DNA of 64,000 nt, taken from contig JBIQJB010000001.1 of assembly GCA_044507735.1 (NCBI GenBank), forward strand, positions 192,001 through 256,000, given 5' to 3'. This stretch comes from Nitrosopumilales archaeon. Its GTDB lineage: Archaea; Thermoproteota; Nitrososphaeria; Nitrososphaerales; Nitrososphaeraceae. Shown one piece after another: positions 3,873 to 55,649 of this stretch. Positions within the stretch are counted from its first letter, which is position 1, and each line of letters begins with the position of its first letter. The position numbers and the translations under genes were made by a program. The notes under the pieces are model-generated. The model saw only the letters and a program-made list of their open reading frames with translations. It did not search any database and had not been told where the DNA came from.

Positions 3873-3937
3873 CCGTGGTTTATGCAATGCCCTGGCAATA
3901 TTGTTCCTTTTAACCAGAACGACTCTGTGTGTCTGGG

Positions 3938-39984: not shown

Positions 39985-41208
39985 GTGGAGGCAATGCAAA
40001 AAGTTGTAGGGATTCTCATCGCAATTTCCATACTGCTGGCCTCTGCGCTTGCGATTCAAGTAAGTCGCGATGGCGGGCTGGCAGTGGGCCAGACGGAAAA
40101 TCCTGTGGCAAAGGCGGCTCCTGACACGTCTTCATCGCAGCAAAACCCCAGCACCACAGCTATCGTCAATTCCGGATCGGCAGTACTTGACACCGAAAGT
40201 TTGACTCTTAACCAAGTGTTCAAAAAGACCAACAACTCTGTGGTTCAGATAACGAGCAGCGTAAAGACAGTCGTCCCAAACATAATAATCAATGGCAATC
40301 CGCTAGAAAGCCAATCGACGCGTCTTGGTTCCGGGTTTGTTTACGATACCGAAGGTAGAATCATAACCAACAACCACGTCGTTGACGGCGCAAGAACTGT
40401 CGATGTCACGTTTGTAGATGGAAATACATACTCTGCCGAGGTTGTGGGAACCGACGCCTTTAGCGACATCGCAGTGCTGCAGATAACTGACGATTTTTCA
40501 GACGAGGTCCTGAGTCCTCTTCAGCTTGGCAACTCTTCGTTGTTGCAGGTCGGACAGCAGGTTATAGCAATTGGAAATCCATTTGGCCTGAGCAATACCA
40601 TGACCACAGGGATCGTAAGCCAAGTAGGGAGGCTGCTGCCAAACCCTGAGTTGGGATTCTCCATTCCAAGTGCAATACAGACAGACGCTGCCATCAACCC
40701 TGGCAACTCCGGAGGGCCGTTGCTCGACGCTCAGGGTAATGTGATGGGTGTCAACACCGCAATCACGTCCAACACTGGCGATTTTTCCGGCATTGGCTTT
40801 GCAATCCCTTCGAATACTGTGGCGCGCATTGTGCCGCATCTCATAAGTGAGGGCAAGTACGACCACCCTTGGCTAGGCATAACGGGCACAAACCTAACGC
40901 CGGATCTTGCAGAAAAGAAGGGGCTTCCGAGGGACTTTAAGGGCGTGGCCATCGCTTCAGTGGTTCCTGGGGGACCCGCGGAAAAGGCCGGCATTATAGG
41001 CGGTTCCGGGAATGACTTGCTTGCAGGTGATGTCGTAACCGCAATCAATGGGCATACAGTCAAAAGGATAGAGGACATTATCTTTTACATAGAAGAGCAA
41101 ACTTCGGTGGGAGACAAAGTTACGATCACGGTTCACAGGGACGGTCAATCCCAGGAGCTTTCTGCAACTCTGGAAGCAAGACCACCACCCATGGCACAGA
41201 TAGGCTAG
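39985..41208 (+). CDS. htrA: HtrA/DegP-like serine protease with PDZ domain
   Basis: TNNHVV, DIAVL, INPGNSGGPL, C-terminal PDZ, N-terminal TM helix. Confidence 0.93.
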   Translation: MEAMQKVVGILIAISILLASALAIQVSRDGGLAVGQTENPVAKAAPDTSSSQQNPSTTAIVNSGSAVLDTESLTLNQVFKKTNNSVVQITSSVKTVVPNIIINGNPLESQSTRLGSGFVYDTEGRIITNNHVVDGARTVDVTFVDGNTYSAEVVGTDAFSDIAVLQITDDFSDEVLSPLQLGNSSLLQVGQQVIAIGNPFGLSNTMTTGIVSQVGRLLPNPELGFSIPSAIQTDAAINPGNSGGPLLDAQGNVMGVNTAITSNTGDFSGIGFAIPSNTVARIVPHLISEGKYDHPWLGITGTNLTPDLAEKKGLPRDFKGVAIASVVPGGPAEKAGIIGGSGNDLLAGDVVTAINGHTVKRIEDIIFYIEEQTSVGDKVTITVHRDGQSQELSATLEARPPPMAQIG

Positions 41209-42035
41209 ACCACCTTTACTACCACATCTGTGTCGATTACTTTCCTTTCTTTGGCCATTTCAAACATCCTTTCTATTGCTATCTTGCCGTCATGACCCAT
41301 GTCAACAGTCAGTTTGTTGACGTACATTTTCACAAATCTTGTGATTGTTTCCTTCGGCTGTCCTCGACCATATTGCATTGCATAATCGACCGCAGCATCG
41401 ATGTTGTCAAGACCATATTTCACCGATCTTGTAAAGAAATCGCTGAATTCCTCTATCTGCTCGGCACTCATTGTCCTGGCGCTTGCGACATTGATCCCAA
41501 GTGGTACCGGAAGGCCACTCATGTTCTCTGTCCACCAGCTGCCAAGGTCAAGCGCTGCAGAAAACCTGTTCCTGTCGTAGGTTATCTGTGCCTCGTGAAT
41601 GACCAGCCCTGCATCGACCCTGCCTGCTGCCACTGCGTCAGGTATGGCGTCAAAGGACATCTCTTGTTCATTGAACTTGCCAATTGCCAGCAGTAGCAAG
41701 AGGTTTGCGGAGGTCATCTTGCCCGGTATCGCTATAGTGGCCTCTTGTAACTGCTCTGGCGTCATCTTGTTTTCCTTCTTTGTAATGACTATCGGGCCAT
41801 AGTTGAGCCCAAAACTGCCACCGCTTTTCAAGATGACATAGTCCTGCAGATAGGCAAATGCATGAGCAGAAACTGCGGTGACGTCCAGCTCGTGCTTGAG
41901 CGCACGCCGGTTGAGAGTTTCGATGTCCTGTATGACGTGTTTTACTGCAAAGCTGGATCTTACCTTGCCAGACGCAATTCCGTAGAACATGAACGCATCG
42001 TCCGCGTCCGGCGTATGCCCAAGCGTTATCTCCAT
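41205..42035 (-). CDS. mqnD: 1,4-dihydroxy-6-naphthoate synthase (MqnA/MqnD family)
   Basis: GHTPDADDAFMFY, YGPIV, AIPG..TSA, LVIHE, LPVPLG. Confidence 0.85.
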   Translation of the reverse strand: MEITLGHTPDADDAFMFYGIASGKVRSSFAVKHVIQDIETLNRRALKHELDVTAVSAHAFAYLQDYVILKSGGSFGLNYGPIVITKKENKMTPEQLQEATIAIPGKMTSANLLLLLAIGKFNEQEMSFDAIPDAVAAGRVDAGLVIHEAQITYDRNRFSAALDLGSWWTENMSGLPVPLGINVASARTMSAEQIEEFSDFFTRSVKYGLDNIDAAVDYAMQYGRGQPKETITRFVKMYVNKLTVDMGHDGKIAIERMFEMAKERKVIDTDVVVKVV

Positions 42036-42230
42036 GACTCATTTTCAACCGATTTTTGTACCTATTAAATCATCGTCTCGAAATTTGCGAAAACTCATTG
42101 TCGCAAAATCACCATTGCAGGGGAGAAACGTGCTCAATATAAGAGCTATGTGGTAGCACTCTATAAAATTTCGCAGGATGGGGAACAAATGCTAAGAATT
42201 CTTTTATATTGGACACTCTACTCCGAATGT

Positions 42231-44480
42231 ATGGAGAGAAGATCCGACAGCAACCAGGATAAAGTTCTGCAACTCCAGTTTTTGGGAAGCACCGCACAAG
42301 ATTCGCAGCCAAAGGTGGCCCTCTTTGCAGTAGATACGAAGGGTGGCATCACCACGATCAAAAAGCTACAATCTCTTGAAGGCAACAAGATCAGCCTTTC
42401 CGAATTGACCCGCAATGTGAAGGAAGGTGTCATCTATGGGTTTGGACCTGATATTGACGAGACCGAAGTAAGAAAAGAGATGTTGTTTACATTTAGGCCA
42501 AAAGAAAAGATCCGCGAGTGGACAGACACCGGTGTTATTGAAATCAACCCAAAGTGGCGCGACTGGATCCTGCCGATAGCGTGCGTCCACGGTGACGTTC
42601 ACAGATGTCGCTTTATCTTTCCACCCATCATTACTCTTGCAGGAACGAAAACACTCGCCGCAAGTTCACCAGCGGCCCGCAGTTCTACTTTTAAAATTGC
42701 GCAGGGCGTCTCTGATCAACTCCATCCAATATACCCTGAGCTTTTTCCAATCTGCGCACCTGTGTGTAATGCCGTCGTTGAAGTTTACGAAAAAACGTGC
42801 TGCTGTTTAATCCGGCCTTTTGACATAGACGCTTTGCTTGACAGGCTAAGGGAATGGCTTGAAAGAATTCCGCCGATACCTCCAATAGATCCGGAAGATC
42901 CGATCGGTCCGATACCCGGACCAGACCCTGCTCCATTTGGAAGAGAGGTTGCCAAGACTGCCAAATTGGCTCAGGCAAGCGCGATCAAGATTCCACTTGG
43001 CATCTTGCCACAGAGGCTTGTGGAAGATTACCAAACACTGTCCACATTGCCATATGAAAAGAGGCTTGAATACGTCAATACCCGCGACTACCTCTATCCG
43101 ATATTCTGCACATGCAGCTCCAGGAAAGTAGGCGAAACCCCGGTCAACGAAGACGGTGAATTCAGCCTCTGCTACTTCAAAGGACCGACAAGAAGCGGGT
43201 GCAGAACGACGTATTACTATAAGGTGAGGCAGTGGCAGGAGAACCAGTGGGTCTACATCTACGATGGCTCGACCACAAATGAGTACTTCAAGGGGTCAGA
43301 CACCGCTCATCTGCGCACATGGAAGGGGCTTGCGTGCCGGCCGGATGGAGGAATAAATCCCGGAGGAGACTTTGTAATGCTGGAAAACATTGGCTCCACT
43401 CCGAGTTGGAGGCTTGACAGCCCGACACAGGATTCAGAGTTCGGCGTATCAAGTGCGAATCCTTCGGACGGCCTTACGAACATCGGCCAACCATGGGGCA
43501 AGACGCTTCATTTTAGGCTCAAGTTCAGCGAGGGGCTAAAGGCGCTCGGAGCAAAGTATTACAGGGTTAGCGTAGTCAAGGCCAACTCTAGCGGAGATCC
43601 CGAGTTGGGAGCGGTCCCGCAGCCTCTGACAAGCCCTGTTGCCTGGAGACGCTGGATCAATGCTGGCGGCCAGATCAAGACAGAGGCAGTTACGCTCGGT
43701 CCGCTAGTAGCGCCCAACGGAGCAGGCGCACTATATTTGATACCATACGAAGCTGACGCGCCACTTGGATGGCTCTGGTTCCAGTACCATCAGACATGGA
43801 ATACCACCGCCTACGATAACGCCAAGCATCTTGTCATTGTAGAAATTTTTGACGCTAATGGCAACAGGCTCAAACCAAATGGAGCGCCCGGAGGCGATAT
43901 TGCCAAACCCTTCACATTCAGACGCTGGATCGACGAAGAAAACACCGTGGCCGTGAACTTTGCAGCGCTGACACACATGTTCCACGTCGACAATATCAAG
44001 TGCTACGGCGACATCGTCGACTTTCGCAAGAACGGGGTTCCATCAACCGCCGAATGCCAGTTCATTACAGGGTGCGCAACGGACAACTTTTCTGTCGGCA
44101 TGTATGCATTCCATGTCAACGGCTTCATGAGTAGCTATCACCTCTGGTATCACAGAGGACTCAATGGTCCGAATGTGACTCTTGAGACAGGCACCACAAA
44201 TGCACCTGCCGGCATACCTCCAATTCCAAGCCCGCTCAACTCTGCAAATGCGAAGCAGTCCAATTCAAGCACATTTGATGAAATGCTTGGACCCCACGAC
44301 AAATGCTCATTCAGCGTAGAGCTCAGAGTATATCCAAAGCACACGGATGGCTTTGGGACGATCTGGGAGTACGGCGCTTCTGACACGGCTGCAGTTGCTT
44401 TGGAAAAGGTTCTCTGCATCAGCAGTCAAGCTCTCGCGATACCTGTTCGGGAGTTGTCAAAGCCGGCACCATTGCCATAA
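42231..44480 (+). CDS. Large Cys/Pro-rich beta-rich hypothetical protein (about 750 aa)
   Basis: Long clean ORF; TTTTATATT box about 25 nt upstream of the ATG at 42231; T-rich tract after the stop. Confidence 0.85.
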   Translation: MERRSDSNQDKVLQLQFLGSTAQDSQPKVALFAVDTKGGITTIKKLQSLEGNKISLSELTRNVKEGVIYGFGPDIDETEVRKEMLFTFRPKEKIREWTDTGVIEINPKWRDWILPIACVHGDVHRCRFIFPPIITLAGTKTLAASSPAARSSTFKIAQGVSDQLHPIYPELFPICAPVCNAVVEVYEKTCCCLIRPFDIDALLDRLREWLERIPPIPPIDPEDPIGPIPGPDPAPFGREVAKTAKLAQASAIKIPLGILPQRLVEDYQTLSTLPYEKRLEYVNTRDYLYPIFCTCSSRKVGETPVNEDGEFSLCYFKGPTRSGCRTTYYYKVRQWQENQWVYIYDGSTTNEYFKGSDTAHLRTWKGLACRPDGGINPGGDFVMLENIGSTPSWRLDSPTQDSEFGVSSANPSDGLTNIGQPWGKTLHFRLKFSEGLKALGAKYYRVSVVKANSSGDPELGAVPQPLTSPVAWRRWINAGGQIKTEAVTLGPLVAPNGAGALYLIPYEADAPLGWLWFQYHQTWNTTAYDNAKHLVIVEIFDANGNRLKPNGAPGGDIAKPFTFRRWIDEENTVAVNFAALTHMFHVDNIKCYGDIVDFRKNGVPSTAECQFITGCATDNFSVGMYAFHVNGFMSSYHLWYHRGLNGPNVTLETGTTNAPAGIPPIPSPLNSANAKQSNSSTFDEMLGPHDKCSFSVELRVYPKHTDGFGTIWEYGASDTAAVALEKVLCISSQALAIPVRELSKPAPLP

Positions 44481-44569
44481 CAACAGACAAAACCTTCTCT
44501 TTTTTCTTTGATCAAAAAAAGAACCGAACATTTAATAGTCCTGCGAAAAACTTTTTTCGATTGTAGCAT

Positions 44570-46771
44570 ATGCCGAAGTTCAAGTCAACCCAAGACATAT
44601 TGAGAATAATTGGTAACAAGGATCAAATTCGAAACTTTGGTGTCATTGCCCATGTAGACCACGGCAAGACGACCATGAGTGATAGCCTCCTCGCCGCGTC
44701 GGGCATCATTTCCCCGTCGGTCGCAGGTCAGGCGCTAGCCCTCGATTCCATGAAGTTGGAGCAGAACCGACAGATGACAATCAGAGGGGCAAACGTCACG
44801 CTATTCTACGAAACGGACGGCAAGGAATACGTCATCAACATGATCGATACACCCGGCCACATTGACTTTACCGGCAGGGTGACCCGTGCGCTGCGCGCAA
44901 TTGACGGAGTGGTCGTGGTGTCAGACTCTGTAGAGGGCATCATGACCCAGACAGAAACCGTCACCAGACAGGCACTTGAAGAGCGCGTGAGGCCTGTGCT
45001 TTACATCAACAAGATAGACAGACTCGTCAAGGAGCTAAAGCTGGGTCCAGAAGAGATGCAGAAGTGGCTTATGAACATCATCAACCACTTTAACCAGCTC
45101 GTCGATATTTATGCCGAACCAGAACTCAAGGACAAGTGGAAGGTCAGCATTCAGGGCAACAGCGTTGCCTTTGGCTCTGCCAAGGATCGCTGGGGCTTTA
45201 ATTTCAAAATGGCACAAAAGACAAAGATCAACTTTAAGGATGTTTATGATGCTTATACAAAGAATGACCCTGAGCTCATAAAGTCGCTCTCGCAGAGATC
45301 GCCTCTATCAGACGCGGTGCTTGGCATGGTGGTGGAACATCACCCGCCGCCCCACGTTGCCCAGAAATACAGGATCCCAAAAATCTGGCCGGGCGACCTC
45401 AACTCTGAAACTGGCAGGGCGCTGCTGGCATGCGACGAAAAGGGCCCTGCACTAATGATGGTGACCACCATCAACGTTGACCCTCAGGCTGGAAGGGTTG
45501 CGACAGGTAGGCTCTACTCTGGCACCATAAAGGACGGTGACGAAGTCTACCTTGTCGACGCAAAGAGGACAGGAAGGGTACAATCTGTAAACATCTACAT
45601 GGGTAACACCAGAGAAATAGTGAGCGTTCTGCCCGCAGGTAACATCCCTGCACTGCTAGGGCTTGACTATGCAGTCGCAGGCGAGACCATATCGACTGTC
45701 AAGGGCGTACAGCCTTTCGAATCGATCAAGTACGTGTCCGAGCCTGTGGTCACTATTGCAGTCGAGCCAAAGCACCCCAAGGACCTACCCAAGCTAGTGG
45801 AGGCGCTGCGCAGAATCACCGTGGAAGACCCCAACCTGATAGTCAAGATCAACGAGGAGACCGGCGAGACTCTGATGGCAGGCATGGGTGTACTTCACCT
45901 GGAGATCGCAACTTCGCTCCTGCAGGAAGCAGGCCTTGACATTGTCACTACACAACCACTCATCAACTACCGCGAAACCATTCGCTCAAAGGCCGGGCCC
46001 ATAATGAGCAAGTCGCCTAACAAGCACAACAAGATATTCCTCCGCGTCGAGCCCCTGCCAGACGACATCCTTGACATGATAAGGACCGGCAAGATTAAGG
46101 AGGACATGGACAAGAAAGAGATGGCGAAGCTCTTGAGGGACAAAGGATGGAGCGCAGACGAAGCAAGGAGCGTTGCTGCAATAGATGTAAGCGGTAACAT
46201 GCTGGTAGATGAGACCAAGGGTGTCCAGTTCCTTCAGGAATCGATGGATTCTATCCGGTCAGGCTTTGACGACGTGATCAAGAATGGCCCGATAGCACAT
46301 GAAGCAGTCAGAGGTGTCAAGTTTGTGCTACACCACTTTGTGCCTCACGAAGACCCTGCACACAGAGGTCTTGCTCAACTTATGCCTGCTACGAGGAGAG
46401 CCATGTTGGGCTCGATGCTCATCGCGGACCCTGTGCTCCTTGAGCCGATACTTGGCATTGAGATCAAGTGCCCGCAGGACCTAATCGGCGCGGTGTCAAC
46501 TGTACTTTCGGGCAAGCGTGGCAAGCTGCTCAACGTAGAGCAAAAGGGGATCATTGCAATCATGCAGGGCGAAGTGCCCGCTTCAGAAACGTTCGACCTT
46601 TCTGAAAAGATGAGAGGGGCCACGGCAGGCAAGGCGATGTGGAACACCTACTTCAAGGCCTGGCAGCCAGTTCCAAACTCGATATTCCGCACACTGGTTG
46701 CAGATGTGAGGAAGAGAAAGGGACTCAACCCTGAGCCGCCATCGCCAGACGAGTTCATAGACAAGGAATAA
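44570..46771 (+). CDS. fusA: Translation elongation factor aEF-2
   Basis: AHVDHGKTT, DTPGH, NKID, diphthamide loop HEDPAHRG. Confidence 0.98.
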   Translation: MPKFKSTQDILRIIGNKDQIRNFGVIAHVDHGKTTMSDSLLAASGIISPSVAGQALALDSMKLEQNRQMTIRGANVTLFYETDGKEYVINMIDTPGHIDFTGRVTRALRAIDGVVVVSDSVEGIMTQTETVTRQALEERVRPVLYINKIDRLVKELKLGPEEMQKWLMNIINHFNQLVDIYAEPELKDKWKVSIQGNSVAFGSAKDRWGFNFKMAQKTKINFKDVYDAYTKNDPELIKSLSQRSPLSDAVLGMVVEHHPPPHVAQKYRIPKIWPGDLNSETGRALLACDEKGPALMMVTTINVDPQAGRVATGRLYSGTIKDGDEVYLVDAKRTGRVQSVNIYMGNTREIVSVLPAGNIPALLGLDYAVAGETISTVKGVQPFESIKYVSEPVVTIAVEPKHPKDLPKLVEALRRITVEDPNLIVKINEETGETLMAGMGVLHLEIATSLLQEAGLDIVTTQPLINYRETIRSKAGPIMSKSPNKHNKIFLRVEPLPDDILDMIRTGKIKEDMDKKEMAKLLRDKGWSADEARSVAAIDVSGNMLVDETKGVQFLQESMDSIRSGFDDVIKNGPIAHEAVRGVKFVLHHFVPHEDPAHRGLAQLMPATRRAMLGSMLIADPVLLEPILGIEIKCPQDLIGAVSTVLSGKRGKLLNVEQKGIIAIMQGEVPASETFDLSEKMRGATAGKAMWNTYFKAWQPVPNSIFRTLVADVRKRKGLNPEPPSPDEFIDKE

Positions 46772-46956
46772 GAGCACTCTCCCCCTCCTCCCCCTCCGCT
46801 CATTTTTGTGCCGCTTTTTCAGGCCATGACTAGATAATGTCGTACGTTATGATTTGTTGGAAATAGCTCATGAGCAAATGACTATGCCATCACCATGACG
46901 TTCGTCATGACGCTCAAGGGACACAAGAACCACTATATCGTCAAGCTGCTGAGAGG
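46768..46956 (+). repeat. Direct repeat copy 1 (aEF-2 3' end, spacer and cas1 5' stub)
   Basis: Shares ATAAGAGCA, GCTCATTTTTGTG and ATTTGTTGG with 47622-47804; 49 nt identical (46899-46947 = 47747-47795). Confidence 0.9.
46772..46820 (+). terminator. Probable aEF-2 terminator
   Basis: GAGC...GCTC around a pyrimidine tract, then TTTTT and a second TTTTT. Confidence 0.5.
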
Positions 46957-46959
46957 TAT
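46907..46959 (+). pseudogene. cas1: cas1 (casposase-like) remnant 1: first ~17 codons
   Basis: MTLKGHKNHYIVKLLRG, same as the start of remnant 2. Confidence 0.7.
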
Positions 46960-46969
46960 CGTTGTTCCA

Positions 46970-47536
46970 TCACGCGTGTTCGAGCAGCTCGGTTCGATAC
47001 TTCGGAGCAAGTGCCATGGCCTTCGCTTTGAACTCTGCTTGTGCTGCTTCATCAAGCATAGGTGGAGGCGTTGTGCGGGTTGCGACCGGTACACCAGCCT
47101 CCATGAAGAAATCCTCCTGACCGGGCGGTGAACATATGCAAAGCATTCTCACGGGCTGAGAGGAGGAGTTGTGAAACTGGTGCGGCGCGTTTGCTGGGAT
47201 ATTGATCGTCTCACCCGCCCGCACGGCACGTTTCGTGCCGCGAAAGGTAGCCTCAAGTTCGCCCTCAAGCATGATGAAAGTTTCTTCGAAGTCGTGACGG
47301 TGTGGAGGTGGTCCGCCACCCGGGGGTATATGCATGTCGATCAGGCAAAAGCGGCCTGACGTGTCTTTACCTGTGAGAAGGATGGTGTACGTATCTCCAA
47401 CCACTCCAATGTGAGGAAGTTTCTGATTGGTGTTTGGCTGGGCAATGGCGAGATCGCGTTTAAGATTATCGGATGGTAAGATTGCTGAAGCTGGCGGCTC
47501 CGGCATATTTGTTTTTTTGGACATTCTGCGCTTCAA
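46970..47536 (-). CDS. Cupin-domain protein (quercetinase-like); alternative ATG at 47524
   Basis: PPGGGPPPHRHDFEETF and IPANAPHQF cupin motifs. Confidence 0.9.
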   Translation of the reverse strand: MKRRMSKKTNMPEPPASAILPSDNLKRDLAIAQPNTNQKLPHIGVVGDTYTILLTGKDTSGRFCLIDMHIPPGGGPPPHRHDFEETFIMLEGELEATFRGTKRAVRAGETINIPANAPHQFHNSSSQPVRMLCICSPPGQEDFFMEAGVPVATRTTPPPMLDEAAQAEFKAKAMALAPKYRTELLEHA

Positions 47537-47621
47537 TAGACAAATGGCACCTCCAACTAATCAAATTATCGAAACATGATTCTCTATCAAAATTGTAGGT
47601 TGTGGATTTAATTGACTATTG

Positions 47622-47804
47622 ATAAGAGCAGTTTCCTTCACCCTACCCCGGCTCATTTTTGTGTCGCCTTTTAGGTTCGGCTATATCATGTTGTATGTTA
47701 TAATTTGTTGGAGATAGCTTATCAATAGATGGCATAGCCATCATATCGTTCGTCATGACGCTCAAGGGACACAAGAACCACTATATCGTCAAGCTATTGA
47801 GAGG
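47622..47804 (+). repeat. Direct repeat copy 2
   Basis: See copy 1 (46768-46956). Confidence 0.9.
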
Positions 47805-48070
47805 ATATGGAGCATCAAAAAGCCCGAATAATAACAAGGTTGTTTCGAAAGGAGCTAGGGATGAATTCACAGGCCCGCAAGAGATTGAAGAATGGTTTGT
47901 GACACAAATTCCGTATGAACGGATTGAAATAGCCGACAAGGTGTACGTGTCGACTGATGTTATACAACTGCTAGTTGATCATAACATAATGTGATTTTAT
48001 TGGATTTGCTTAGTAAGCCTTTTGTCAACATGAACAATATCGTGGCTAGTCTTACTTGCACAAACTATGA
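47755..48070 (+). pseudogene. cas1: cas1 (casposase-like) remnant 2: N-terminal ~105 codons, frameshifted
   Basis: MTLKGHKNHYIVKLLRGYGAS...EEWFVTQIPYERIEIADKVYVSTDVIQLLVDHN, then a shifted frame NVILLDLLSKPFVNMNNIVASLTCTNY; aligns by eye with remnant 3. Confidence 0.8.
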
Positions 48071-48177
48071 GGGATTGATCTAATGTGCCATCAGTGAATT
48101 AGTAGAGAAGACGGCAGTTCGTCAGTTTCATGTACAGCGTCCTAACCTGTCTGCTCTCTGCCTCGCCGCTCAGACCG

Positions 48178-48672
48178 CTACATCCGGGAAGCAGTAGAAG
48201 GCTCTGCTGGCGCCGCCTTGCCAAAGTAGGCCTTGACATGTGGCCTGTACATGTAATAGAGGATTACTGCGCTGATGATGATGATGCTTACAATAGCTCC
48301 TACATTTCCAGTCACCAGCGAGACCGAATTCAAAACTATACTGACAACTGCCAGCACAACAGTCAAGGCCCAAGCCCAGGACTTGCCCGTTAAAAGGCCG
48401 TATGCGACAATGGATGAGAAGACGCCTAGACCGAGAAGCATTGCTCCAACTGCTATCGCTGCGCTGCCAATGGCGTTGGTGGGGATCTCGGAAATATCTA
48501 CACCTGGCAGCGTGTCTTGCGTCTGCTGCGATGATGTCGGACCTGCAAGCGTTGACATCACCGGTCCTAGTGCGATCATGCCTAGCCCTCCGATTACCAT
48601 GAAGCTACCGCCAATTATGTTGAGAATTGCAATAATGGTCACGCCGGTCGGGCGTGCGCAAGCTATAGTCAC
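48178..48672 (-). CDS. Four-TM membrane protein
   Basis: RPTGVTIIAIL...GKSWAW...YMYRPHVKAYF. Confidence 0.8.
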   Translation of the reverse strand: MTIACARPTGVTIIAILNIIGGSFMVIGGLGMIALGPVMSTLAGPTSSQQTQDTLPGVDISEIPTNAIGSAAIAVGAMLLGLGVFSSIVAYGLLTGKSWAWALTVVLAVVSIVLNSVSLVTGNVGAIVSIIIISAVILYYMYRPHVKAYFGKAAPAEPSTASRM

Positions 48673-48957
48673 ATGCTGTGAATGGGAGCATCGGATTTAA
48701 AGGCACTGGTCATGGCGATTATTGCATCAGCATTTTCGGAGCCCTCTCCGCTGACATGAGGATCCACATCCTCACTTACGATGACGAGTACATCATTTTT
48801 TCCTTGGAGGATACCTAAATATCACCATACGGTCTACCTTGGTGTGCGGATTTTGTTGATTGTCTGTAACCAACATTCTTTGAATTCTGGGAAGAACAGA
48901 ACCGATAGTAACGCAAGAAATCCCAGACGAGATAGCAACACTACGTACGTATTGTGT

Positions 48958-49373
48958 CTACTTCCATTCATATCCAATGGCTTTGACTTGCTGTGTCGCA
49001 GGATCAAAATCAGACTCTAGAGTCAAGATCGTTCAGCCAAGAATATTTCTGCGAATTTGTGTAGCCTGAGATCATCACCAATCCTCTTATTTTTCCGCCC
49101 TCCACCGTCCTGCCCTTTTCGTGGGCCCACCACAAGAATGTGTCTCCGTCGGAAAATGTTACAAATCCATTGTAGCTTGCATCGACGACTCCGTGGGGAT
49201 ATTGGGTCATTGTACCAAAACTCATGCTCTTTCCACTTGGAAATTTGCCTATCCCTCTTCCAATCATCAACATAGCTCAATTCTATTGTTATTCCTTCTA
49301 CGGGATGCACCTTAGTTATCCTGAACGCTACTGCATTGCCAGTCCCTTCAAAGATTTTCTGGCCTAAAGCCAT
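48958..49373 (-). pseudogene. Doubly frameshifted paralog of 52340-52759
   Basis: MALGQKIFEG...ELSYVDD, shift, GKFPSG...KYSWLND, shift, ...GYEWK-stop. Confidence 0.85.
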
Positions 49374-49670
49374 AGAAAAATGCAAATTTGCAAATTCATA
49401 AGGACTATGTTATTGGGTCTTGGTAACTTGGTGGGGGAGATCAATGTCAATTTCCTTCGCACGATCCTGCTTATCTCATGTCAAGTTACTGCCGTCTTCT
49501 TTTGCAATATTTAGTACTCTCCACTCGTTGGAATGTTTTTGCCGGTTTTTGTGAAGTTGGATCAGTGAAATGTTCCATTTTGAGTTGTTGTCTGTGTTTA
49601 TCGATAGGAACTATAAGCAGAAGGGCGCATCCACTAATCATAAATCCGACAAAGCTAACTATTCGATAGT

Positions 49671-51170
49671 ATGGAAGAGCTGCCTCAAAGAGCTTTAATC
49701 CTTCAAGGAGGCGGCGCCTTAGGTGCCTATGAGGCAGGTGCTTTCAAGGCGCTATATGAGAAACTGATCAAAGAAGACAGAGAGAGCAAGAACGCCGAAA
49801 GGCCTCTTTTTGACATCGTCGCGGGTTCGTCGATTGGAGCTGTAAACGCCTGCTTTCTAGTAAGTTACGTTCTCAATAACAAACAATCCAATCCTGAGAA
49901 GAGCATTGCGGATTGTTGGAAAGATTCCGATCAGGCTCTGGTGAACTTTTGGATCGGTCTTGCCAATCACACCTTACTAGATAATGCACCAATCCGGTTT
50001 GTATGGGATTGGATTTGGAATTCAGCTAAAGCCTACCGAGATGGATGGGTTCAGTACTGGAAAAACCTTGTCGAGATCTTTCCGGGGAGCATCAGCTTCA
50101 GAAAAGAATGGCCTTTCAGGGAGTGGTATTATTCATGGCCTGACAAGTGGGGACCGCTGGCAACAGGTGAAGGAGCAAGGCGGTATTATTCATACTGGAA
50201 TTCTTCTTTTACAGGTATCGAGGGGATTTTGACCGGGGGCATTCCTCAACCGGATTACAAATTTCTAAATGGGTTTGCTCCAGGCTTCTATCGCTTTGAC
50301 AACACTCCCTTAATCAACACCTTAAAAAGGATGTGGTATCTAAATGGCCAGCCGATATCAACAAAGAAAGGGGAACCTAGGCTATTGTTGGTTAGCGTCG
50401 ACGTGCAAGATTGCAGCTCTGCTGCGACCTTCGACAGCTACGAAAAGAAGAGAGACGGCAGTACTATAAGACATCATTTTACCGAATATGGATCGGAAAA
50501 TGAGGAGCCAAAAGTAATAGAGTACGAGGGTGTCGCTACAGATCATTTGCTTGCAAGCATGTCTACAAATCAGAGATATGAATTTCCTTCCATGCGTACT
50601 GCCGACGGAAGGCAGACACGTTACTTTTGGGACGGCGCGTACCTTAGCAATACACCATTGAGGGAAGTTATTCAACACCATCGGGACTTTTGGCTAAAAA
50701 CAGAAGGCGAGAAGAAAGTGCCAGATCTGGAAGTCTATATCATCAACCTATATCCCGCAACTGAAGCAACGGTGCCCCAAGATGCCGATTCCATCCAAGA
50801 CCGGGAGATTGATATAAAGTTCCACGATAGAACAAAGTATGACTTGAAGGTTGCTGGCATGGTAACTGACTACATAGATCTCGTGGAAAAGCTGAAGGAG
50901 CTCGCAGAATCAAAGGGATTGTCAGAACAAGTCAAGAGTATCCTTGATGGAGAAGTGGGGAAGAGCGTCAAGCGAAGCGGAGATAAGAGAAGGTATCGAA
51001 GTCTGATCGAAGGCAGGTTTGCAATCCCGAGAACTGTTCACGTCGAAAGACAGGATGATTCAAATGCAATTTATGGCAAGGCATTTGACTTTTCAGAGCA
51101 TACCGTTAAGAACTTGATCGACCTAGGCTACCAAGACGGACTCAAAGCCTATGATAAGAGTGCAGAATGA
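49671..51170 (+). CDS. Patatin-like phospholipase
   Basis: QGGGALGAY oxyanion hole, GSSIG nucleophile, WDGAYLSNTPL. Confidence 0.92.
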   Translation: MEELPQRALILQGGGALGAYEAGAFKALYEKLIKEDRESKNAERPLFDIVAGSSIGAVNACFLVSYVLNNKQSNPEKSIADCWKDSDQALVNFWIGLANHTLLDNAPIRFVWDWIWNSAKAYRDGWVQYWKNLVEIFPGSISFRKEWPFREWYYSWPDKWGPLATGEGARRYYSYWNSSFTGIEGILTGGIPQPDYKFLNGFAPGFYRFDNTPLINTLKRMWYLNGQPISTKKGEPRLLLVSVDVQDCSSAATFDSYEKKRDGSTIRHHFTEYGSENEEPKVIEYEGVATDHLLASMSTNQRYEFPSMRTADGRQTRYFWDGAYLSNTPLREVIQHHRDFWLKTEGEKKVPDLEVYIINLYPATEATVPQDADSIQDREIDIKFHDRTKYDLKVAGMVTDYIDLVEKLKELAESKGLSEQVKSILDGEVGKSVKRSGDKRRYRSLIEGRFAIPRTVHVERQDDSNAIYGKAFDFSEHTVKNLIDLGYQDGLKAYDKSAE

Positions 51171-51261
51171 CTGTGCAAAATCACTATTACTCGCTTGTCT
51201 CCTTAACGATCCTTTCTTGATGAGATATACTGTCACTACCTGAATAGTTATTTTATGATTC

Positions 51262-52169
51262 TCAATCAATTTGAAAGGAATCGAGTACTATGTTTCCTTG
51301 TCTCGTCCGTGCATATTCATCCTTTCTGATCACGCGAACAAATGTCGCTTCTTCTGCAGAAGACTTGTAAACAGCAAATTTGACTAACCCTCCGAGAGGA
51401 TTAATCTGATCATAAACTAGTGTTTGGAATGAATTATGCGTCTTGTGGGCAAGGCCTTAGTGTGATTCAGGCCCAAGGTCATTAGCGAACTTCGTAATTT
51501 TCGCAGCTAGCATGCCCCTAATTCAGCAGATCATCAACGGCATCCGACACATATCGATTGTTCATTATGTCACCTCTACCACAACGCGAGTAGTAGATAT
51601 GTCTTGTTGAAAATAATTTGACATAAGTTCTAAAATAGACATATCCAACTCGTGCTTCTACGGTGAGAAATTCGCACATGTTAGTCGAGGTATTGACTTT
51701 TGCAAGATTCTGGCTCAATCCTGTAATGACATCGCTCAAATTATACCTGTCAAGACTCTTCAGAAAGGTAGTCTGGATCTGAAGCTTGGCGGCCATTAAC
51801 TTTCTTTTGCAAATAAGGACCCTTTTCTTTCAAAGAGCATCATACTGTCCGTTGTGTGACTAGTTTCAGTTGGATTTGACATTATTCTGAGCAGCTTGGA
51901 ACCAAATTGCCAAATGAATCTGACAAGATTACATTGATGTCATCATTTGTGAGTAGCGTTATTGCATCAGTTGAAACATAAGCCTTGCCGGCAATTGTAA
52001 TCTGTTCAGAAGGAATGTGCACTATGAACCATTTTTCCATTTCAGCCTGCCCTTGTAAACCTGGTGATGTTGTCTTTCAGGCATGTTCAGTTTGCTATGA
52101 GGCCAATGGAAAAGTCGTAGCCATGCACCAACTCACATTGCAGTTTGTTCAATTGCCCATCAGCGTCAA
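51262..52169 (-). pseudogene. cas1: cas1 (casposase-like) remnant 3: nearly full-length, multiple stops and frameshifts
   Basis: Stitched frames LTLMGN*TNCNV / LVHGYDFSIGL / EKWFIVHIPSEQITIAGKAYVSTDAITLLTNDDINVILSDSFGNLV / AAKLQIQTTFLKSL...FLTVEARVGYVYF...SDAVDDLLN*G / LAHKTHNSFQTLVYDQINP; matches Cas1 E..A..Y, N.LLNYGY and H...L.YD..EP. Confidence 0.85.
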
Positions 52170-52339
52170 CGCATCATGTGCAGCATGTAATTGCTGCGGC
52201 TCTACTCCAGTTCGCCCTATTTTTTGTGCTCAGACTGAGGGAATCAATCTTTGGAAGAGGGAATAAGAAAACAAATCAAACGCTTTGTGCCCAAAAATCC
52301 GCGTTGGACACAAGGCGACTAATCAGAGTGGAATTGCAT

Positions 52340-52759
52340 TTACTTCCATTCATATCCTGTGGACTTGATTTGCCGTGTTGCAGGGTCAAACTCTGTCTCT
52401 AGGACAATGACAAGGTTGTTCAACCAAGAATATTTCTGCGAATTTGTGTAGCCTGAGATCATCACCAATCCTCTTATTTTTCCGCCCTCCACCGTCCTGC
52501 CCTTTTCGTGGGCCCACCACAAGAATGTGTCTCCGTCGGAAAATGTTACAAATCCATTGTAGCTTGCATCGACGACTCCGTGGGGGTATTGGGTCATTGT
52601 ACCAGAACCCGTGCTCCTAGCATTTGGAAACTTGCTCAATCCCCTCAGCTCCTCGACAAAGCTCAGTTCCATTGTCGTTCCTTCCACAGGGTGGACCTTC
52701 GTTATCTTGAAACTTACTACGCTGCCAGTCCCTTCAAAGACTTTTTCGTCAAAGACCAT
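52340..52759 (-). CDS. Hypothetical beta-rich protein ending GYEWK
   Basis: Intact 139-aa ORF from the ATG at 52759; paralog at 48958-49373. Confidence 0.8.
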   Translation of the reverse strand: MVFDEKVFEGTGSVVSFKITKVHPVEGTTMELSFVEELRGLSKFPNARSTGSGTMTQYPHGVVDASYNGFVTFSDGDTFLWWAHEKGRTVEGGKIRGLVMISGYTNSQKYSWLNNLVIVLETEFDPATRQIKSTGYEWK

Positions 52760-53231
52760 GACAAAGTGCAGAGTTTGCAGTTCATAAAGATTGCTTTCCG
52801 AGTTCTGGATTTTCTGACGGGACATCTAGGTCGCTAGCAACCGGCTAACCACGCACTATTGATTGGTGCCCAAGTTGTGATTCAAGAGTACCGTTGGCGT
52901 TTGGAGTTTGATTAAGATCGGGCCGAATCACATCGGTGACATCATTCGCTCTCATGCAGGAATCGATCTGAATCTTGCATAGTATGAAGTTGAATCACGC
53001 ACGAGACAGGTGGCGGTTTACTCAAAAGACGTACAAGAACCAACAGTAAATGGACTTGGTATCGGAACAAACAAAGTGCAGGTATTGAATGAAGGCGATT
53101 CGACAAAGATGAAGCCTCTTGAATGGATGGAAAAGAATTAATCGCGCGAAGTCCATGATATACTGAGAGTGCAGGGCCTTAACTGGATGGCGAGTGGAAA
53201 GGGTAGCTGCTGGATAATCATGACAGTTGCA

Positions 53232-54014
53232 TCAAAGTATGGCGGCAGCCTTTAGGAACATGATGACAGCTACAAAGATCAACACAACGCCAATGAGCAG
53301 CTTCAGAGCGTTGGCACTAAATCTGGTTGTATATTTCGCGCCGATATACCCACCTATCATAGCTGTCGAACCCATCAGGCCAAGCACCAAAAAATCTACA
53401 TTTCCATTTAGCAAATGACCTGCCAAGCCCGCCGCACCCATGATCGAAGATGCTGCTAGGTTTGTCCCAATAGCTACCTTTGGCTCCATCTTTAGCACCC
53501 CGATCATTGCCGGCATCCTTATGCTACCAAGTACTAATCCGACCATGCCGCCAAGAAAACCAACACCAAAGCCAATTGAGGATTCAACACCTAGATTTGG
53601 TTTACTCGCGGCCTTCTGTTCGCCCTTTCCTTTTTGAGAGCTAGTGATTAGCGAGTATGCTTCATAGGAAACAATCAAACCAATGATGACAAAGAGAAAA
53701 GTTACTGGCACATGCTGTGTCAGCATAGAACCAAGAAAAGCACCCGCTGCACCTGTAGCAGCCATTATTGCAAAGATTCTGAGGTGCACGTTATTCTGTC
53801 GGAAGTGTCTGATTGCTGCGGTCATGGCTCCCAGAGTGCTAATGCCCATGTTCGTTCCAGCAACCATAGCTACCGTAGCTCCTGCGCCTCCAGTCGTTGT
53901 GAGAATCAGTGGAAATCTAAGCACTCCGAGAACCAGGCCTAAAAGACCTCCTACAAATCCAATGGCTAACCCAAGTGAGCCAAGCATGATAATCGTGAAT
54001 AGGTCAATTGGCAT
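53232..54014 (-). CDS. TauE/SafE-family (sulfite exporter-like) membrane protein
   Basis: Two internal repeats GFVGGLLGLVLG / GFLGGMVGLVLG, AIGTNLA, GGYIGA. Confidence 0.88.
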   Translation of the reverse strand: MPIDLFTIIMLGSLGLAIGFVGGLLGLVLGVLRFPLILTTTGGAGATVAMVAGTNMGISTLGAMTAAIRHFRQNNVHLRIFAIMAATGAAGAFLGSMLTQHVPVTFLFVIIGLIVSYEAYSLITSSQKGKGEQKAASKPNLGVESSIGFGVGFLGGMVGLVLGSIRMPAMIGVLKMEPKVAIGTNLAASSIMGAAGLAGHLLNGNVDFLVLGLMGSTAMIGGYIGAKYTTRFSANALKLLIGVVLIFVAVIMFLKAAAIL

Positions 54015-54179
54015 TTTGTTCTATCAGGATATTATCGGAAGCAATAGAGCCTATAAAAGCAGATATTCACACCACGCGCAACGAAATGATCTCCGCGCGG
54101 GATGGAACGGTCAATCAAATTGCTTCCACGACACGAGTTTGCAACTGCGCTAAAATTCATGCTGGATAAAATGAGAAGA

Positions 54180-54545
54180 CTATCCCTTGCTTTTCGACCA
54201 CTTTATCATCCAGTCGATCAGCGACATGACAGATTCAACGAGCTCTTGTCCTTTTGGAGTCAGACGATATTCGACACGTGGTGGGATTTCGTTATATGCC
54301 TGCCTGCTCAGGATGCCGCTCTTTTCTAGTTCCTTGAGCCTAGAAGCCAGAGTCTTGCTGCTAATCCCTTTCAATGCCCGCCGAAACTGTTTGTACCTGA
54401 CAGGTCTTGTGGTGCAGCAGAGAGGTATCAGAATTTCAAGTGTTCCCCTTTTGGTGATAATTTTGCGCAGCTTGGCTGTCTCTGCCATCAAGGAATCAAC
54501 ATCGTATCCGCAGCCTTCGATCATTGGGAGCTTCTTGGTTTCCAT
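54180..54545 (-). CDS. HxlR-family winged-helix regulator
   Basis: ISSKTLASRLKELE, YNEIPPRVEYRLTPKG; Cys in GCG and LCC. Confidence 0.92.
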   Translation of the reverse strand: METKKLPMIEGCGYDVDSLMAETAKLRKIITKRGTLEILIPLCCTTRPVRYKQFRRALKGISSKTLASRLKELEKSGILSRQAYNEIPPRVEYRLTPKGQELVESVMSLIDWMIKWSKSKG

Positions 54546-54574
54546 GGTGAAACTAACGATAGCAGAGTATCCTT

Positions 54575-54613
54575 GACAAGTTAAATAGTTTCCCAAGTAA
54601 ACCTAAGCGGTGA
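54575..54613. promoter_or_regulatory. Candidate shared TATA box (TTAAATA, 54581-54587), imperfect palindrome and SD (GGTGA, 54609-54613) in the 72-bp divergent intergenic region
   Basis: GACAAG-TTAAATA; TAGTTTCCCAAGTAAACCTA; GGTGA 4 nt before the ATG at 54618. Confidence 0.5.
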
Positions 54614-54617
54614 TAAA

Positions 54618-54704
54618 ATGGCAAAGAATAACCAACCAAAAGAAGCGGTAAAGGAATGCTGCCCAGATGGTTCGTGCAAAGGTTGTTGCTGCTGTTGCTG
54701 TTAG
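54618..54704 (+). CDS. 28-aa polycysteine micropeptide MAKNNQPKEAVKECCPDGSCKGCCCCCC
   Basis: Manual translation; SD GGTGA; TATA box upstream; GGTGGTGAACAACC hairpin-like sequence and T6 tract just downstream. Confidence 0.75.
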   Translation: MAKNNQPKEAVKECCPDGSCKGCCCCCC

Positions 54705-54875
54705 GCGGTGGTGAACAACCCCTCTTTTTTCCAAAAAACCACGCGATCGGCAACAGCCGCAAATGTGCCGTAGCAAAAACAACCAACTTGCAGCACCCGA
54801 TACTAAACACCGAGTACGCAGCGGAACTCCAAACCCTAATACTTATATTAAGTTTATAAAACACCGTTATATTGT

Positions 54876-55649
54876 ATGGCATTTCTAGAAGTAAAGGATC
54901 TGCGCGTCAGCATCGACGGCAAGGAGATCCTCTCTGGACTCAATTTGAGCGTTGAAAAGGGTGAGGTCCACGCGATCATGGGACCAAACGGTTCTGGCAA
55001 GAGCACTCTTGCAAATGCTATCCTTGGTCACCCCAAGTACAACGTCGAGTCTGGCGATATACTCGTAAATGGAGAGAGCATCCTCGACCTGTCTACCGAT
55101 CTTCGAGCAAGGAAGGGTCTTTTCCTCGGATTCCAGTACCCTATAGAAATCCCTGGCGTTGGCTATAGCCACTTTTTGAGGAATGCTTACAACACTCTCG
55201 GCAAGGAAGACAAGAACCGCGAAGTGTTCCTCACTGTACGCGAGTTCCACGAGTACGTCAAAAAGAATCTTGACGCGGTAGGGCTTGACAAGTCGTTCTT
55301 GAGTCGATACCTGAACGAAGGGTTCTCCGGCGGGGAGAAGAAGCGCTCAGAAGTAATGCAGATGCTTGTCTTGAAGCCAAATATTGCGATACTCGACGAA
55401 CCGGATTCAGGGCTTGACATTGATGCCGTCAAGGCGGTGGCTGAAGCAATAAACAAGCTGATAGATACTGGTGCTGGTGTGATCGTGATTACACACTATG
55501 CTAGGATCCTGCGTTACTTGACAAAACTCGATCGCGTCCACGTGGTTGCAAAGGGAAAAGTAATCCGATCGGGTGGCAAGGAGCTTTCAGAAGAGCTGGA
55601 AACAAAGGGCTATGGCTGGCTTGGGATAGAAGAAGGCAAGCCGGAATAA
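54876..55649 (+). CDS. sufC: Fe-S cluster assembly ATPase SufC
   Basis: GPNGSGKS, FQYPIEIPGV, NEGFSGGEKKR, DEPDSGLDID, ITHY. Confidence 0.96.
   Translation: MAFLEVKDLRVSIDGKEILSGLNLSVEKGEVHAIMGPNGSGKSTLANAILGHPKYNVESGDILVNGESILDLSTDLRARKGLFLGFQYPIEIPGVGYSHFLRNAYNTLGKEDKNREVFLTVREFHEYVKKNLDAVGLDKSFLSRYLNEGFSGGEKKRSEVMQMLVLKPNIAILDEPDSGLDIDAVKAVAEAINKLIDTGAGVIVITHYARILRYLTKLDRVHVVAKGKVIRSGGKELSEELETKGYGWLGIEEGKPE

Follow-up and report, generated by a model that had tools for sequence, protein, structure and literature searches.

How did three broken cas1 genes come to lie one behind another downstream of the aEF-2 gene in a Nitrososphaera genome (soil group I.1b, an ammonia-oxidising archaeon)? 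The machinery that integrates CRISPR spacers presumably descends from casposons, and, to our knowledge, the natural integration history of few casposons has been documented. An earlier note on this DNA had described a casposon hotspot that was hit several times and whose remnants decayed unequally. Here we analyzed the 64-kb stretch of DNA that holds the locus (the window), which is part of a 315-kb contig, together with the 2.3-Mb genome that was searched. With a probability of roughly 70%, we read the 5.5 kb behind aEF-2 (46777 to ~52245) as a graveyard of family-1 casposons on which at least three elements landed.

Results

Three cas1 relics behind an intact aEF-2 gene

The gene upstream of the relics is aEF-2, as the earlier note had assumed: it carries the EF-G/EF-2 domain set and its product is 88-98% identical in amino acids to the aEF-2 of 10 relatives over residues 1-733. 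Relic 1 starts 136 nt past the stop codon of this full-length gene, and the target gene is undisrupted. With P0001, an intact 362-aa relative, as the tblastn query on the window, we recovered all three of the mutually homologous fragments that had been proposed, where they had been proposed, and all remaining matches in the window had E ≥ 1.8 (Table 1). The two pieces of relic 2 (47755-47988 and 47988-48068, plus strand) are 74% and 63% identical to P0001, and the three pieces of relic 3 (52169-51900, 51850-51512 and 51513-51277, minus strand) are 46-57% identical, spread over three frames with at least two frameshifts and six in-frame stops. That the fragments are Cas1 is borne out by the alignment of all three to P0001 and by the score of relic 3 with Pfam Cas_Cas1 (26.9 bits, cut-off 22.3); the whole genome has two matches to this profile, both within relic 3. 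The strings cited earlier as eroded Cas1 motifs of the longest fragment, TVEARVGYVYF, DDLLN*G and AHKTHNSFQTLVYDQINP, are present in the relic 3 translation, which retains E173, H245 and D257 and has N in place of E260. The farther a relic lies from aEF-2, the more decayed it is, with 10/10, 39/48 and 70/128 invariant residues kept in relics 1, 2 and 3, respectively. A candidate fourth cas1 remnant in 48080-49000 was rejected, its best six-frame score being 33 against a shuffle mean of 36.4. No tRNA was found in a scan of the region, and no Rfam family in 44000-55000. The stretch 41067-47556 is backed by an independent metagenome contig, and contiguity past 47556 comes from a single assembly.

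Table 1 Features of the aEF-2 locus in window coordinates
Feature	Position	Strand	Basis
aEF-2 gene (733 aa), intact, integration target	44570..46771	+	Pfam GTP_EFTU, EFG_III, EFG_IV, EFG_C
R1, last ~25 nt of aEF-2 including the stop codon, proximal target-site repeat	46748..46776	+	Reference for repeat scans
Left-end (subterminal) sequence of relic 1, stop codon to cas1 start	46777..46906	+	Homologous upstream of cas1 in 9 other elements
cas1 relic 1, codons 1-17 only	46907..46957	+	tblastn, 88% identity to P0001
Intact cupin gene (188 aa), fused downstream of relic 1	46970..47536	-	Pfam Cupin_2, 4.5e-20
R2, second aEF-2 3' end copy, decayed	47602..47630	+	20/29 identical, core 17/23
Left-end sequence of relic 2	47631..47754	+	Alignment to other left ends
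cas1 relic 2, codons 1-105 with a frameshift at 47988	47755..48068	+	tblastn with P0001
DUF2127/DUF7144 membrane protein gene, behind relic 2	48178..48672	-	Pfam
Decayed duplicate of R-like sequence, post-stop sequence and 161-aa gene, weak candidate fourth scar	48860..49404	-	Direct repeats D1, D2, D4
Intact patatin-like phospholipase gene (499 aa) adjoining the 3' truncation of relic 3	49671..51170	+	Pfam Patatin, 6.1e-16
cas1 relic 3, codons 1-301, inverted, last ~60 codons gone	51277..52169	-	tblastn and Pfam Cas_Cas1
Decayed left-end sequence of relic 3, inverted	52170..52244	-	Weak alignment to other left ends
R3, third aEF-2 3' end copy, direct orientation, just past the 5' end of inverted relic 3	52245..52272	+	9-mer and gapped match
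161-aa gene, multi-copy family, first gene past R3	52340..52825	-	No Pfam or PADLOC match

The relics group with casposases

Relics 2 and 3 were placed in a Cas1 tree, relic 1 with its 17 codons being too short to place. Both fall within a clade of Cas1 genes linked to protein-primed PolB (pPolB) or aEF-2, the casposase clade, which is split at 100/100 from array-linked Cas1, including those from the same family and order; the fragments thus group apart from CRISPR-linked Cas1, as the casposon reading of the earlier note required. Inside the casposase clade they nest in a Nitrososphaera subclade (100/97), where relic 3 is placed beside P0001 (98/87) and relics 2 and 3 form a group with P0001 at 98/82. 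Among solved structures, the family profile matches 6opm best (2.4e-37), which is the M. mazei casposase (PMC8464041). Judged on the intact relatives of the relics and not on the truncated window copies, the protein is compact (355-379 aa), with Cas_Cas1 as its sole Pfam match above cut-off and no C-terminal HTH domain.

Copies of the aEF-2 end bound each relic

A repeat of the final ~25 nt of aEF-2 borders every relic, in the manner of a target site duplication. R2 is the sole match to R1 with ≤6 mismatches in the 64 kb on both strands. R3 matches R1 at ~15/20 positions with one indel, as read by eye, its support being the gapped match together with the 9-mer GGAATAAGA, which occurs on the plus strand of the 64-kb window at 46765 and 52260 only; the sequence after R3 resembles that downstream of the aEF-2 stop codon. 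The left ends of relics 1 and 2 are 75% identical, and neither further left ends nor further R copies were found elsewhere in the genome. Three insertions predict four target copies, of which three are clear and the fourth (~48885) is weak; here the repeats D1, D2 and D4 are 74-95% identical to 52333-52790, and a weak extension reaches the R3 region. The repeat unit starts ~24-26 nt upstream of the last base of the stop codon; independent elements of two other genomes (G132 and G028) have the same start, as expected of a site-specific integrase. Direct repeats of the local aEF-2 end (≤5 mismatches of 23) also lie 3.1-5.6 kb downstream in 4/14 other loci.

The site is occupied in relatives

Three relatives (G079, G150, G156) have an intact cas1 116-123 nt downstream of aEF-2, and a fourth (G136) has a stub there. 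Across Thaumarchaeota, aEF-2 is directly upstream of an intact or stub cas1 in 15/40 loci; as these 40 loci were searched for with N-terminal peptide patterns, the excess of N-terminal stubs among them is partly built in. Members of the casposase clade occur in pPolB (PF03175) elements in G132, G028 and several named Thaumarchaeota loci, and the 11.3-kb element of G132 is flanked by an 18-nt direct repeat that is 3/24 positions off the aEF-2 end of that genome. Four relatives (G133, G166, G132, G028) are without cas1 behind aEF-2; because the ~70 nt that follow the aEF-2 stop codon are the same in them as at occupied sites, none of the relatives compared offers a clean empty site. In three intact relatives, only background-level pairs of terminal inverted repeats (TIRs) were seen, the best candidate of G132 scoring like background. 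Hence, of what the earlier note had hoped to see in relatives, Cas1 elements at aEF-2 and elements with pPolB were seen, and clean empty sites and convincing TIRs were not.

In the window itself, generic repeat finding gave no convincing TIR pair bounding any segment, and a six-frame search with PF03175 found no pPolB in the window or the genome, the best matches (E = 0.018, below cut-off) falling inside long ORFs on other contigs. Because no polB and no recognizable TIRs remain, we call these sequences relics and not casposons: the casposon identity proposed earlier holds for the Cas1 clade, the aEF-2 site and the target repeats, but not for polB, and no convincing TIRs were seen. A model prompted by G136, which treats the cas1 stub as belonging to a long TIR of a single element, was rejected as a general explanation, with 0/13 cas1 starts (12 loci) having an inverted copy of the cas1 5' end in the same locus. 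G136 itself has the cas1 5' end repeated in inverted orientation; the two copies are near-identical over the first 145 nt but no longer so beyond, implying that recombination or conversion between such cas1 copies happens. Comparison with relatives also revealed that synteny breaks at the aEF-2 locus. This synteny breakpoint is a new point, and the insertion site coincides with a chromosomal rearrangement.

Serial insertion or duplication in place

We infer several independent insertions, and consider this well supported, because there are three scars, relic 3 is inverted, decay is graded, relics 1 and 2 diverge unevenly and the relics are truncated in separate foreign contexts; the hotspot claim of the earlier note is upheld on these grounds. 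The uneven divergence consists in 3/51 differing coding sites between relics 1 and 2 (6%, all synonymous by codon reading) versus 30/121 aligned non-coding sites (25%; Fisher p = 0.003). The alternative that survives best, though we judge it unlikely, is a single old casposon insertion, after which segmental duplication and inversion made the cas1 pieces and the R copies. Duplication is seen in this very region, where two copies of a 460-nt segment that includes the 161-aa gene lie 3.4 kb apart (83% identity), and the inverted repeat of G136 shows exchange between cas1 copies; R2 and R3 are decayed, and relics 2 and 3 could be duplicates of each other because both group with P0001. However, relics 2 and 3 are merely 62.5% identical in DNA, the divergence of relics 1 and 2 is unlike neutral decay after duplication, the repeat unit has the same start as in the independent G132 and G028 elements, and relic 1 with the cupin gene and relic 2 with DUF2127 are each matched in a different genome, the former in G132 and the latter at locus L096, which has in common with the window the order aEF-2, cas1 stub, DUF2127 (minus strand).

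Beyond these observations, the sequence of events, how many there were and what was later deleted may be reconstructed as follows under serial insertion. The casposase of these transposons, a Cas1-type integrase, recognizes the 3' end of aEF-2, inserts without damage to the gene and duplicates a short target. Each newcomer uses the target copy that still ends the live aEF-2, so that older elements are displaced outward. At least three elements would have landed, two oriented as aEF-2 and one inverted, each leaving a copy of the aEF-2 3' end (R1, R2, R3) beside its cas1-bearing end. Deletions would then have taken the pPolB gene and the far ends, and point mutations and frameshifts would have killed the residual cas1. 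The gaps are now occupied by unrelated genes (cupin, DUF2127 membrane protein, patatin and the 161-aa gene). Transposition from this locus is no longer possible.

The cupin module and the other genes in the wreck

The cupin protein is 93% identical in amino acids to that of G132 alone; 54 others of the 238 genomes searched have a match, none above 46%. It is also 66-80% identical to many contigs of 53-67% GC, and the gene was probably acquired from bacteria. The patatin gene has a weak PADLOC phospholipase-effector match (5e-5), and PADLOC on six neighboring proteins gave weak phospholipase and CARF-like matches only. The family of the 161-aa gene is found in 37/72 genomes of the genus, with up to 4 matches each; we rejected it as a casposon gene, as it is a scattered multi-copy family without a match in any casposon locus compared.

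The window at 46907-47624 matches G132 with 86.8% identity over 719 nt, across the cas1/cupin junction and up to R2, and on this sequence match the fusion of relic 1 and cupin is a module that G132 also has, which is a new point. One could therefore suppose that relic 1 was a small non-autonomous casposon derivative with cupin cargo that arrived as a unit, mobilized in trans or carried by recombination, an explanation that we regard as very improbable. In its favor, the module is more similar than the aEF-2 DNA of the two genomes (80.2%), the G132 copy is ~600 kb away from the aEF-2 of G132, the cupin is so nearly confined to these genomes at high identity, and a family-1 casposase is reported to accept nearly every DNA end for integration into its target (PMC8464041). 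On the other hand, the module was found in only two genomes and one metagenome contig, inverted termini are not recognizable in it, and a rearrangement of the G132 genome could also have moved it. Derived changes are common to the right-hand R copy of the window and that of G132, which implies that this repeat moved together with the block and did not arise anew. A more specific proposal, which we find doubtful but worth stating, is that relic 1 was a 0.85-kb miniature casposon (left end, 17 cas1 codons, bacterial cupin, target-like right end) that spread between Nitrososphaera lineages after the genomes diverged, trans-mobilized by resident casposases, and that Nitrososphaera casposons either bring along or regenerate the aEF-2 3' end. 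If so, these additional aEF-2 ends would serve as secondary targets elsewhere in the chromosome, the surroundings of the G132 element being one example, and would flag where large rearrangements broke it.

Relation to CRISPR-Cas

No CRISPR array was found in the window or on its contig. The genome has a single array, of at least 65 repeats, on another contig (C12:54-4284), with no cas gene recognized among its nine flanking ORFs; the earlier description of a solo cas1 without a CRISPR array therefore stands for the window and the contig but not for the genome. Arrays adjoin 13/17 loci with other Cas1 types versus 0/9 loci with casposase-type Cas1. That the pieces are the dead cas1 of a lost CRISPR-Cas locus, perhaps that of the C12 array, has next to no probability and is already contradicted, for although the genome has this array and no cas1 besides the relics, and Pfam and NCBIfam call the family 'CRISPR-associated Cas1', the tree separates the relics from the array-linked Cas1 of their own family and order, the intact relatives reach no NCBIfam subtype cut-off and adjoin pPolB or aEF-2 and never arrays, and the contig is without one.

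Discussion

In the main this locus is ordinary, since PMC4046053 and PMC6563490 have already reported ef-2 as the usual target of family-1 casposons, as well as tandem family-1 casposons such as the pair in Ca. Nitrosopumilus adriaticus. It resembles the Thaumarchaeota family-1 casposons described there (NitAR1-C1, NitSJ-C1 and the tandem NitNF5-C1/C2) in the compact Cas1-type integrase with no extra domains, in insertion at the aEF-2 3' end with the gene left intact, and in re-use of the site with stacked elements; unlike them, it consists of relics only, without pPolB and recognizable TIRs, and one copy is inverted. Upstream of pPolB, family-1 casposons further carry three or four small, conserved genes. 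The direct target repeat is ~24-29 nt at this locus versus ~22 nt by computation in N. koreensis. The host also differs, the available text of PMC4046053 and PMC6563490 reporting no ef-2 casposon in Nitrososphaera.

A Nitrososphaera casposon, NitEve-C1, is described in PMC6563490 as intergenic and as encoding a HEPN nuclease. The G132 element has the same gene content (cas1, HEPN, pPolB), and its Cas1, 69% identical to P0001, belongs to the subclade of the window fragments; unlike the window relics, it is intact and not behind aEF-2. Its 18-nt repeat connects the element with aEF-2 as a target, a connection that the available text of PMC6563490 does not make for NitEve-C1. The tandem, decaying family-2 casposons of Methanococcoides burtonii and Methanolobus psychrophilus likewise re-use one safe site behind an essential gene and form arrays, with older copies inactivated, but they have an HTH-bearing casposase, an RNA-primed PolB and tRNA targets, according to the sections of PMC4046053 consulted. 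The same source offers the Tn7 arrays at attTn7 behind glmS as an analogy to casposon stacking, although the proteins of Tn7 are unrelated.

The locus is a readable layered record, written in target copies, orientation and graded decay. On our preferred reading of at least three landings, elements returned repeatedly to the aEF-2 site in soil Nitrososphaera, a group for which the literature searched, in its available portions, describes an intergenic casposon only. Relics of the cas1-proximal end persist beside an essential gene, and foreign genes gather in the wreck. The current picture of casposons is unchanged by this locus but extended, and its natural target and end sequences can be used in integration assays.

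Three decayed cas1 pieces behind aEF-2

The aEF-2 gene of the window is 88-98% identical to aEF-2 of ten relatives across all 733 residues. The 103-aa open stretch of the minus-strand fragment, used as query, retrieved one intact relative, P0001 (362 aa, annotated Cas1; 59% identity), and a tblastn search with P0001 placed three pieces in the window, numbered here by distance from aEF-2, with no further match at E < 1.8 in the 64 kb. A six-frame search of the whole 2.33-Mb genome with the Pfam Cas_Cas1 profile gave two matches, both inside copy 3, the better one scoring 26.9 bits against a cut-off of 22.3. By these searches and by translation, the fragment coordinates and motifs quoted in the earlier note are correct.

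Features of the aEF-2 locus (window coordinates)
Feature	Position	Strand	Description
776-aa ORF	42150-44480	+	no Pfam or PADLOC match
aEF-2	44570-46771	+	full-length; Pfam GTP_EFTU, EFG_III, EFG_IV, EFG_C
R1	46748-46776	+	last 29 nt of aEF-2 plus a few bases
cas1 copy 1	46907-46957	+	P0001 residues 1-17, 88% identity (tblastn)
R2	47602	+	sole other window site within 9 mismatches of R1
cas1 copy 2	47755-47988 and 47988-48068	+	P0001 residues 1-105, one frameshift (tblastn)
Patatin-like phospholipase gene	49671-51170	+	intact, inside the relic region
cas1 copy 3	52169-51900, 51850-51512 and 51513-51277	-	P0001 residues 1-301, three frames (tblastn)
R3	52260	+	second GGAATAAGA site, 92 nt past the 5' end of inverted copy 3

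The fragments group with casposases

Full-length proteins like P0001 (~70% identity) are present within the same genus, and matches to P0001 at E ≤ 1e-5 occur in 24 of 71 genomes of the genus and 30 of 238 of the family, with the window's own genome not counted. One such gene, in genome G132, lies together with a HEPN gene, a NACHT-pentapeptide gene and a protein-primed PolB (pPolB; PF03175, 1.7e-18), and another, in G028, with a pPolB (2e-15). CRISPR arrays adjoin 13 of 17 loci with other Cas1 types in the family and order, versus none of nine P0001-type loci (one of them from the unpublished genome G009). In a maximum-likelihood tree of 32 rows the P0001-type and array-type sets are separated at 100/100, and copies 2 and 3 fall inside a Nitrososphaera subclade (100/97), beside P0001 (98/82); copy 3 sits on a long branch (0.87), as a pseudogene would. 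The top solved-structure match for the family profile is 6opm (2.4e-37), described as the M. mazei casposase (PMC8464041), and of the NCBIfam models, intact P0001-type members passed the general cas1 one and none of the subtype ones. Clade, structure match, NCBIfam result and pPolB context together identify the fragments as thaumarchaeal-type (family-1) casposase genes. The earlier note had taken them for casposase rather than CRISPR-linked Cas1, and the separation of copies 2 and 3 from array-type Cas1 (100/100) bears this out.

Copies of the aEF-2 3' end delimit the relics

The direct repeat containing copies 1 and 2 (~79% identity across 189 nt) starts not at cas1 but ~25 nt before the end of aEF-2, stop codon included. 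For a 23-nt core of R1, R2 (6 mismatches) is the only match below 7 mismatches on both strands of the window. On the plus strand, the 9-mer GGAATAAGA across the stop codon is present at 46765 and 52260 only; around the latter, R3, ~15 positions of 20 nt match R1 with one indel (by-eye reading), and the sequence that follows resembles the post-stop-codon sequence of relatives. The positions of R1, R2 and R3 thus give the following layout: aEF-2 and R1; a left end (the sequence between R and the cas1 start), cas1 codons 1-17, a cupin gene (-) and R2; a second left end, cas1 codons 1-105, DUF2127 (-), a decayed copy of a 161-aa gene, patatin (+), inverted cas1 codons 301-1, an inverted left end and R3; and, beyond R3, the 161-aa gene (-). 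A fourth, weak R-like stretch lies ahead of the decayed 161-aa copy, near 48885.

In four of 14 aEF-2-linked loci the local aEF-2 end recurs in direct orientation (≤5 mismatches of 23) 3.1-5.6 kb downstream; three more loci carry inverted copies (3-6 mismatches). In G132 an 18-nt direct repeat flanks an 11.3-kb pPolB-bearing element (loci L064/L069, merged coordinates 9788 and 21137) far from aEF-2, and has 3 differences in 24 positions from that genome's own aEF-2 end: this casposon would sit at a secondary landing site mimicking the primary one. The duplication made by the element of N. koreensis is described as 13 bp long, within a computed repeat of 22 bp (PMC8464041).

No pPolB remains in the genome, and terminal inverted repeats were found neither in the window nor convincingly in intact relatives. 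The stub as part of a long terminal inverted repeat was tested and rejected. The window elements are relics, not casposons.

Several integrations or local duplication

Decay grows with distance from aEF-2: of the invariant residues set from seven intact relatives, copy 1 keeps 10/10, copy 2 39/48 and copy 3 70/128. Copy 3 is interrupted by six stops and at least two frameshifts and lacks its C-terminus; at the positions corresponding by spacing to the Cas1 active site (E141, H208, D218 and D221 of E. coli; PMC4046053), E173, H245 and D257 are kept and E260 is replaced by N. Between copies 1 and 2, differences affect 3 of 51 coding positions, each of them synonymous (by-eye codon reading), versus 30 of 121 aligned non-coding positions plus 14 gap columns (Fisher p = 0.003, gaps excluded). 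This pattern fits two elements that would have diverged under selection on cas1, and is unlike the in-place copying of a dead stub. Copies 2 and 3 share 62.5% DNA identity. The foreign counterparts of the two proximal relics differ as well: the stretch 46907-47624, which holds the stub, the cupin and the spacer as far as R2, is 86.8% identical to a stretch of G132 across 719 nt, through the cas1/cupin junction, and the order aEF-2, stub, DUF2127 (-) of relic 2 is common to locus L096 (titled Nitrososphaera sp.).

Because of the decay gradient, the copy 1/2 divergence pattern and the separate counterparts, we favour at least three integrations: three or more elements would have integrated behind aEF-2, two direct and one inverted, and later deletions would have reduced them to relics. 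The independent events proposed in the earlier note are likewise favoured on these grounds. The main rival, a single relic duplicated and inverted locally, is improbable given the copy 1/2 pattern; we keep it in view because local duplication does exist in the region, copies 2 and 3 group together in the tree, and one expected target copy is absent or very weak.

The aEF-2 site in relatives

Three relatives (G079, G150, G156) have an intact cas1 beginning 116-123 nt behind aEF-2, with no pPolB nearby and CAP-domain, peptidase and MG2-domain genes next. In G136 a 33-codon stub follows aEF-2, and 5 kb away lies a full-length copy that is inverted and frameshifted, its distal boundary the inverted aEF-2 end; the architecture is the same as the window's. 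Among the ten genomes compared, cas1 or a stub stands at aEF-2 in four, another four have it elsewhere only, and G133 and G166 have only distant Cas1 types adjoining CRISPR arrays. Thus Cas1 elements at aEF-2 do occur in relatives, as the earlier note's reading implied; the comparison it proposed, for empty sites and intact elements, yielded the latter and no clean empty site, because genomes without cas1 there keep the same ~70 nt behind the stop codon.

Across Thaumarchaeota, N-terminal patterns from an alignment of seven intact proteins found 40 loci, with aEF-2 directly upstream in 15 and pPolB matches in 11; N-terminal stubs make up 24, a figure biased by these patterns. In an unbiased whole-protein search, fragments of ≥57% identity were mostly N-terminal (about a dozen versus three, hand count). 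A Nitrosarchaeum sp. contig (L084) carries two full-length casposase genes head to head, 7823-8887 (-) and 10001-11047 (+), with a 1.1 kb gap and a pPolB for each. On another Nitrososphaerota contig (L088), a TauE homologue (10485-11198; 70% identity to window 53232-54014) lies ~2 kb past two cas1 stubs behind aEF-2, so TauE may be an old neighbour of the site.

Rearrangement and neighbouring genes

Synteny downstream of aEF-2 is broken at the locus (46772-54810). Genes found a few kb past aEF-2 in five relatives lie on contig C49 of the window's genome, where (13.7-23.3 kb, L063) they adjoin genes located just upstream of the suf operon in four relatives; in the window the suf operon follows aEF-2, from about 54810. 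This is a reciprocal exchange, with one breakpoint in or beside the casposon graveyard; that the casposon copies had a role in it is a guess.

The cupin gene (55% GC) shares 66-80% identity with genes from many metagenome contigs (53-67% GC) that have neither aEF-2 nor cas1, a pattern suggestive of bacterial origin. Window 41067-47556 is matched collinearly, at 88% identity, by an independent metagenome contig (L134), so the assembly is confirmed as far as the cupin. The 776-aa ORF, whose region L134 keeps at 88%, is inserted between a menaquinone-biosynthesis gene (41226-42035) and aEF-2, a gap of about 100 nt in eight relatives. The 161-aa protein (52340-52825(-), 48951-49404) belongs to a multi-copy family matched in 37 of 72 genus genomes (including the unpublished G022), up to four times per genome; many copies have stops or lie at contig ends, and the gene behaves like a repeated or mobile one. 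The patatin-like gene weakly matches PADLOC phospholipase effectors and has a 35% paralogue on contig C12 of the same genome. C12 also carries a CRISPR array (54-4284, L112) of at least 65 repeats (unit beginning GTTTGAATCGAACTATTATAGGATTGAAAG) that starts at the contig end; the nine ORFs beside it have no cas domain, and the genome assembly has no intact cas1.

Relation to published casposons

The aEF-2 3'-distal region is described as the target of complete thaumarchaeal casposons, and tandem and decaying copies are described in Methanomicrobia (PMC4046053). In a further account, ef-2 is the target used most often in Thaumarchaeota, two family-1 casposons stand in tandem in Ca. Nitrosopumilus adriaticus, and the location of a Nitrososphaera casposon is intergenic (PMC6563490). 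Our full-text literature search, main articles only, found no report of casposon relics at ef-2 in Nitrososphaera. The window shares the ef-2 target and tandem stacking with published family-1 casposons and differs in holding relics without pPolB. Overall, the earlier note's observation is real and its interpretation sound. The kind of casposon is already known, and the locus adds another case; what comes on top is modest, namely stacking with an inverted copy, the cas1-cupin module shared with G132 and, at a secondary site, repeats that resemble the aEF-2 end.
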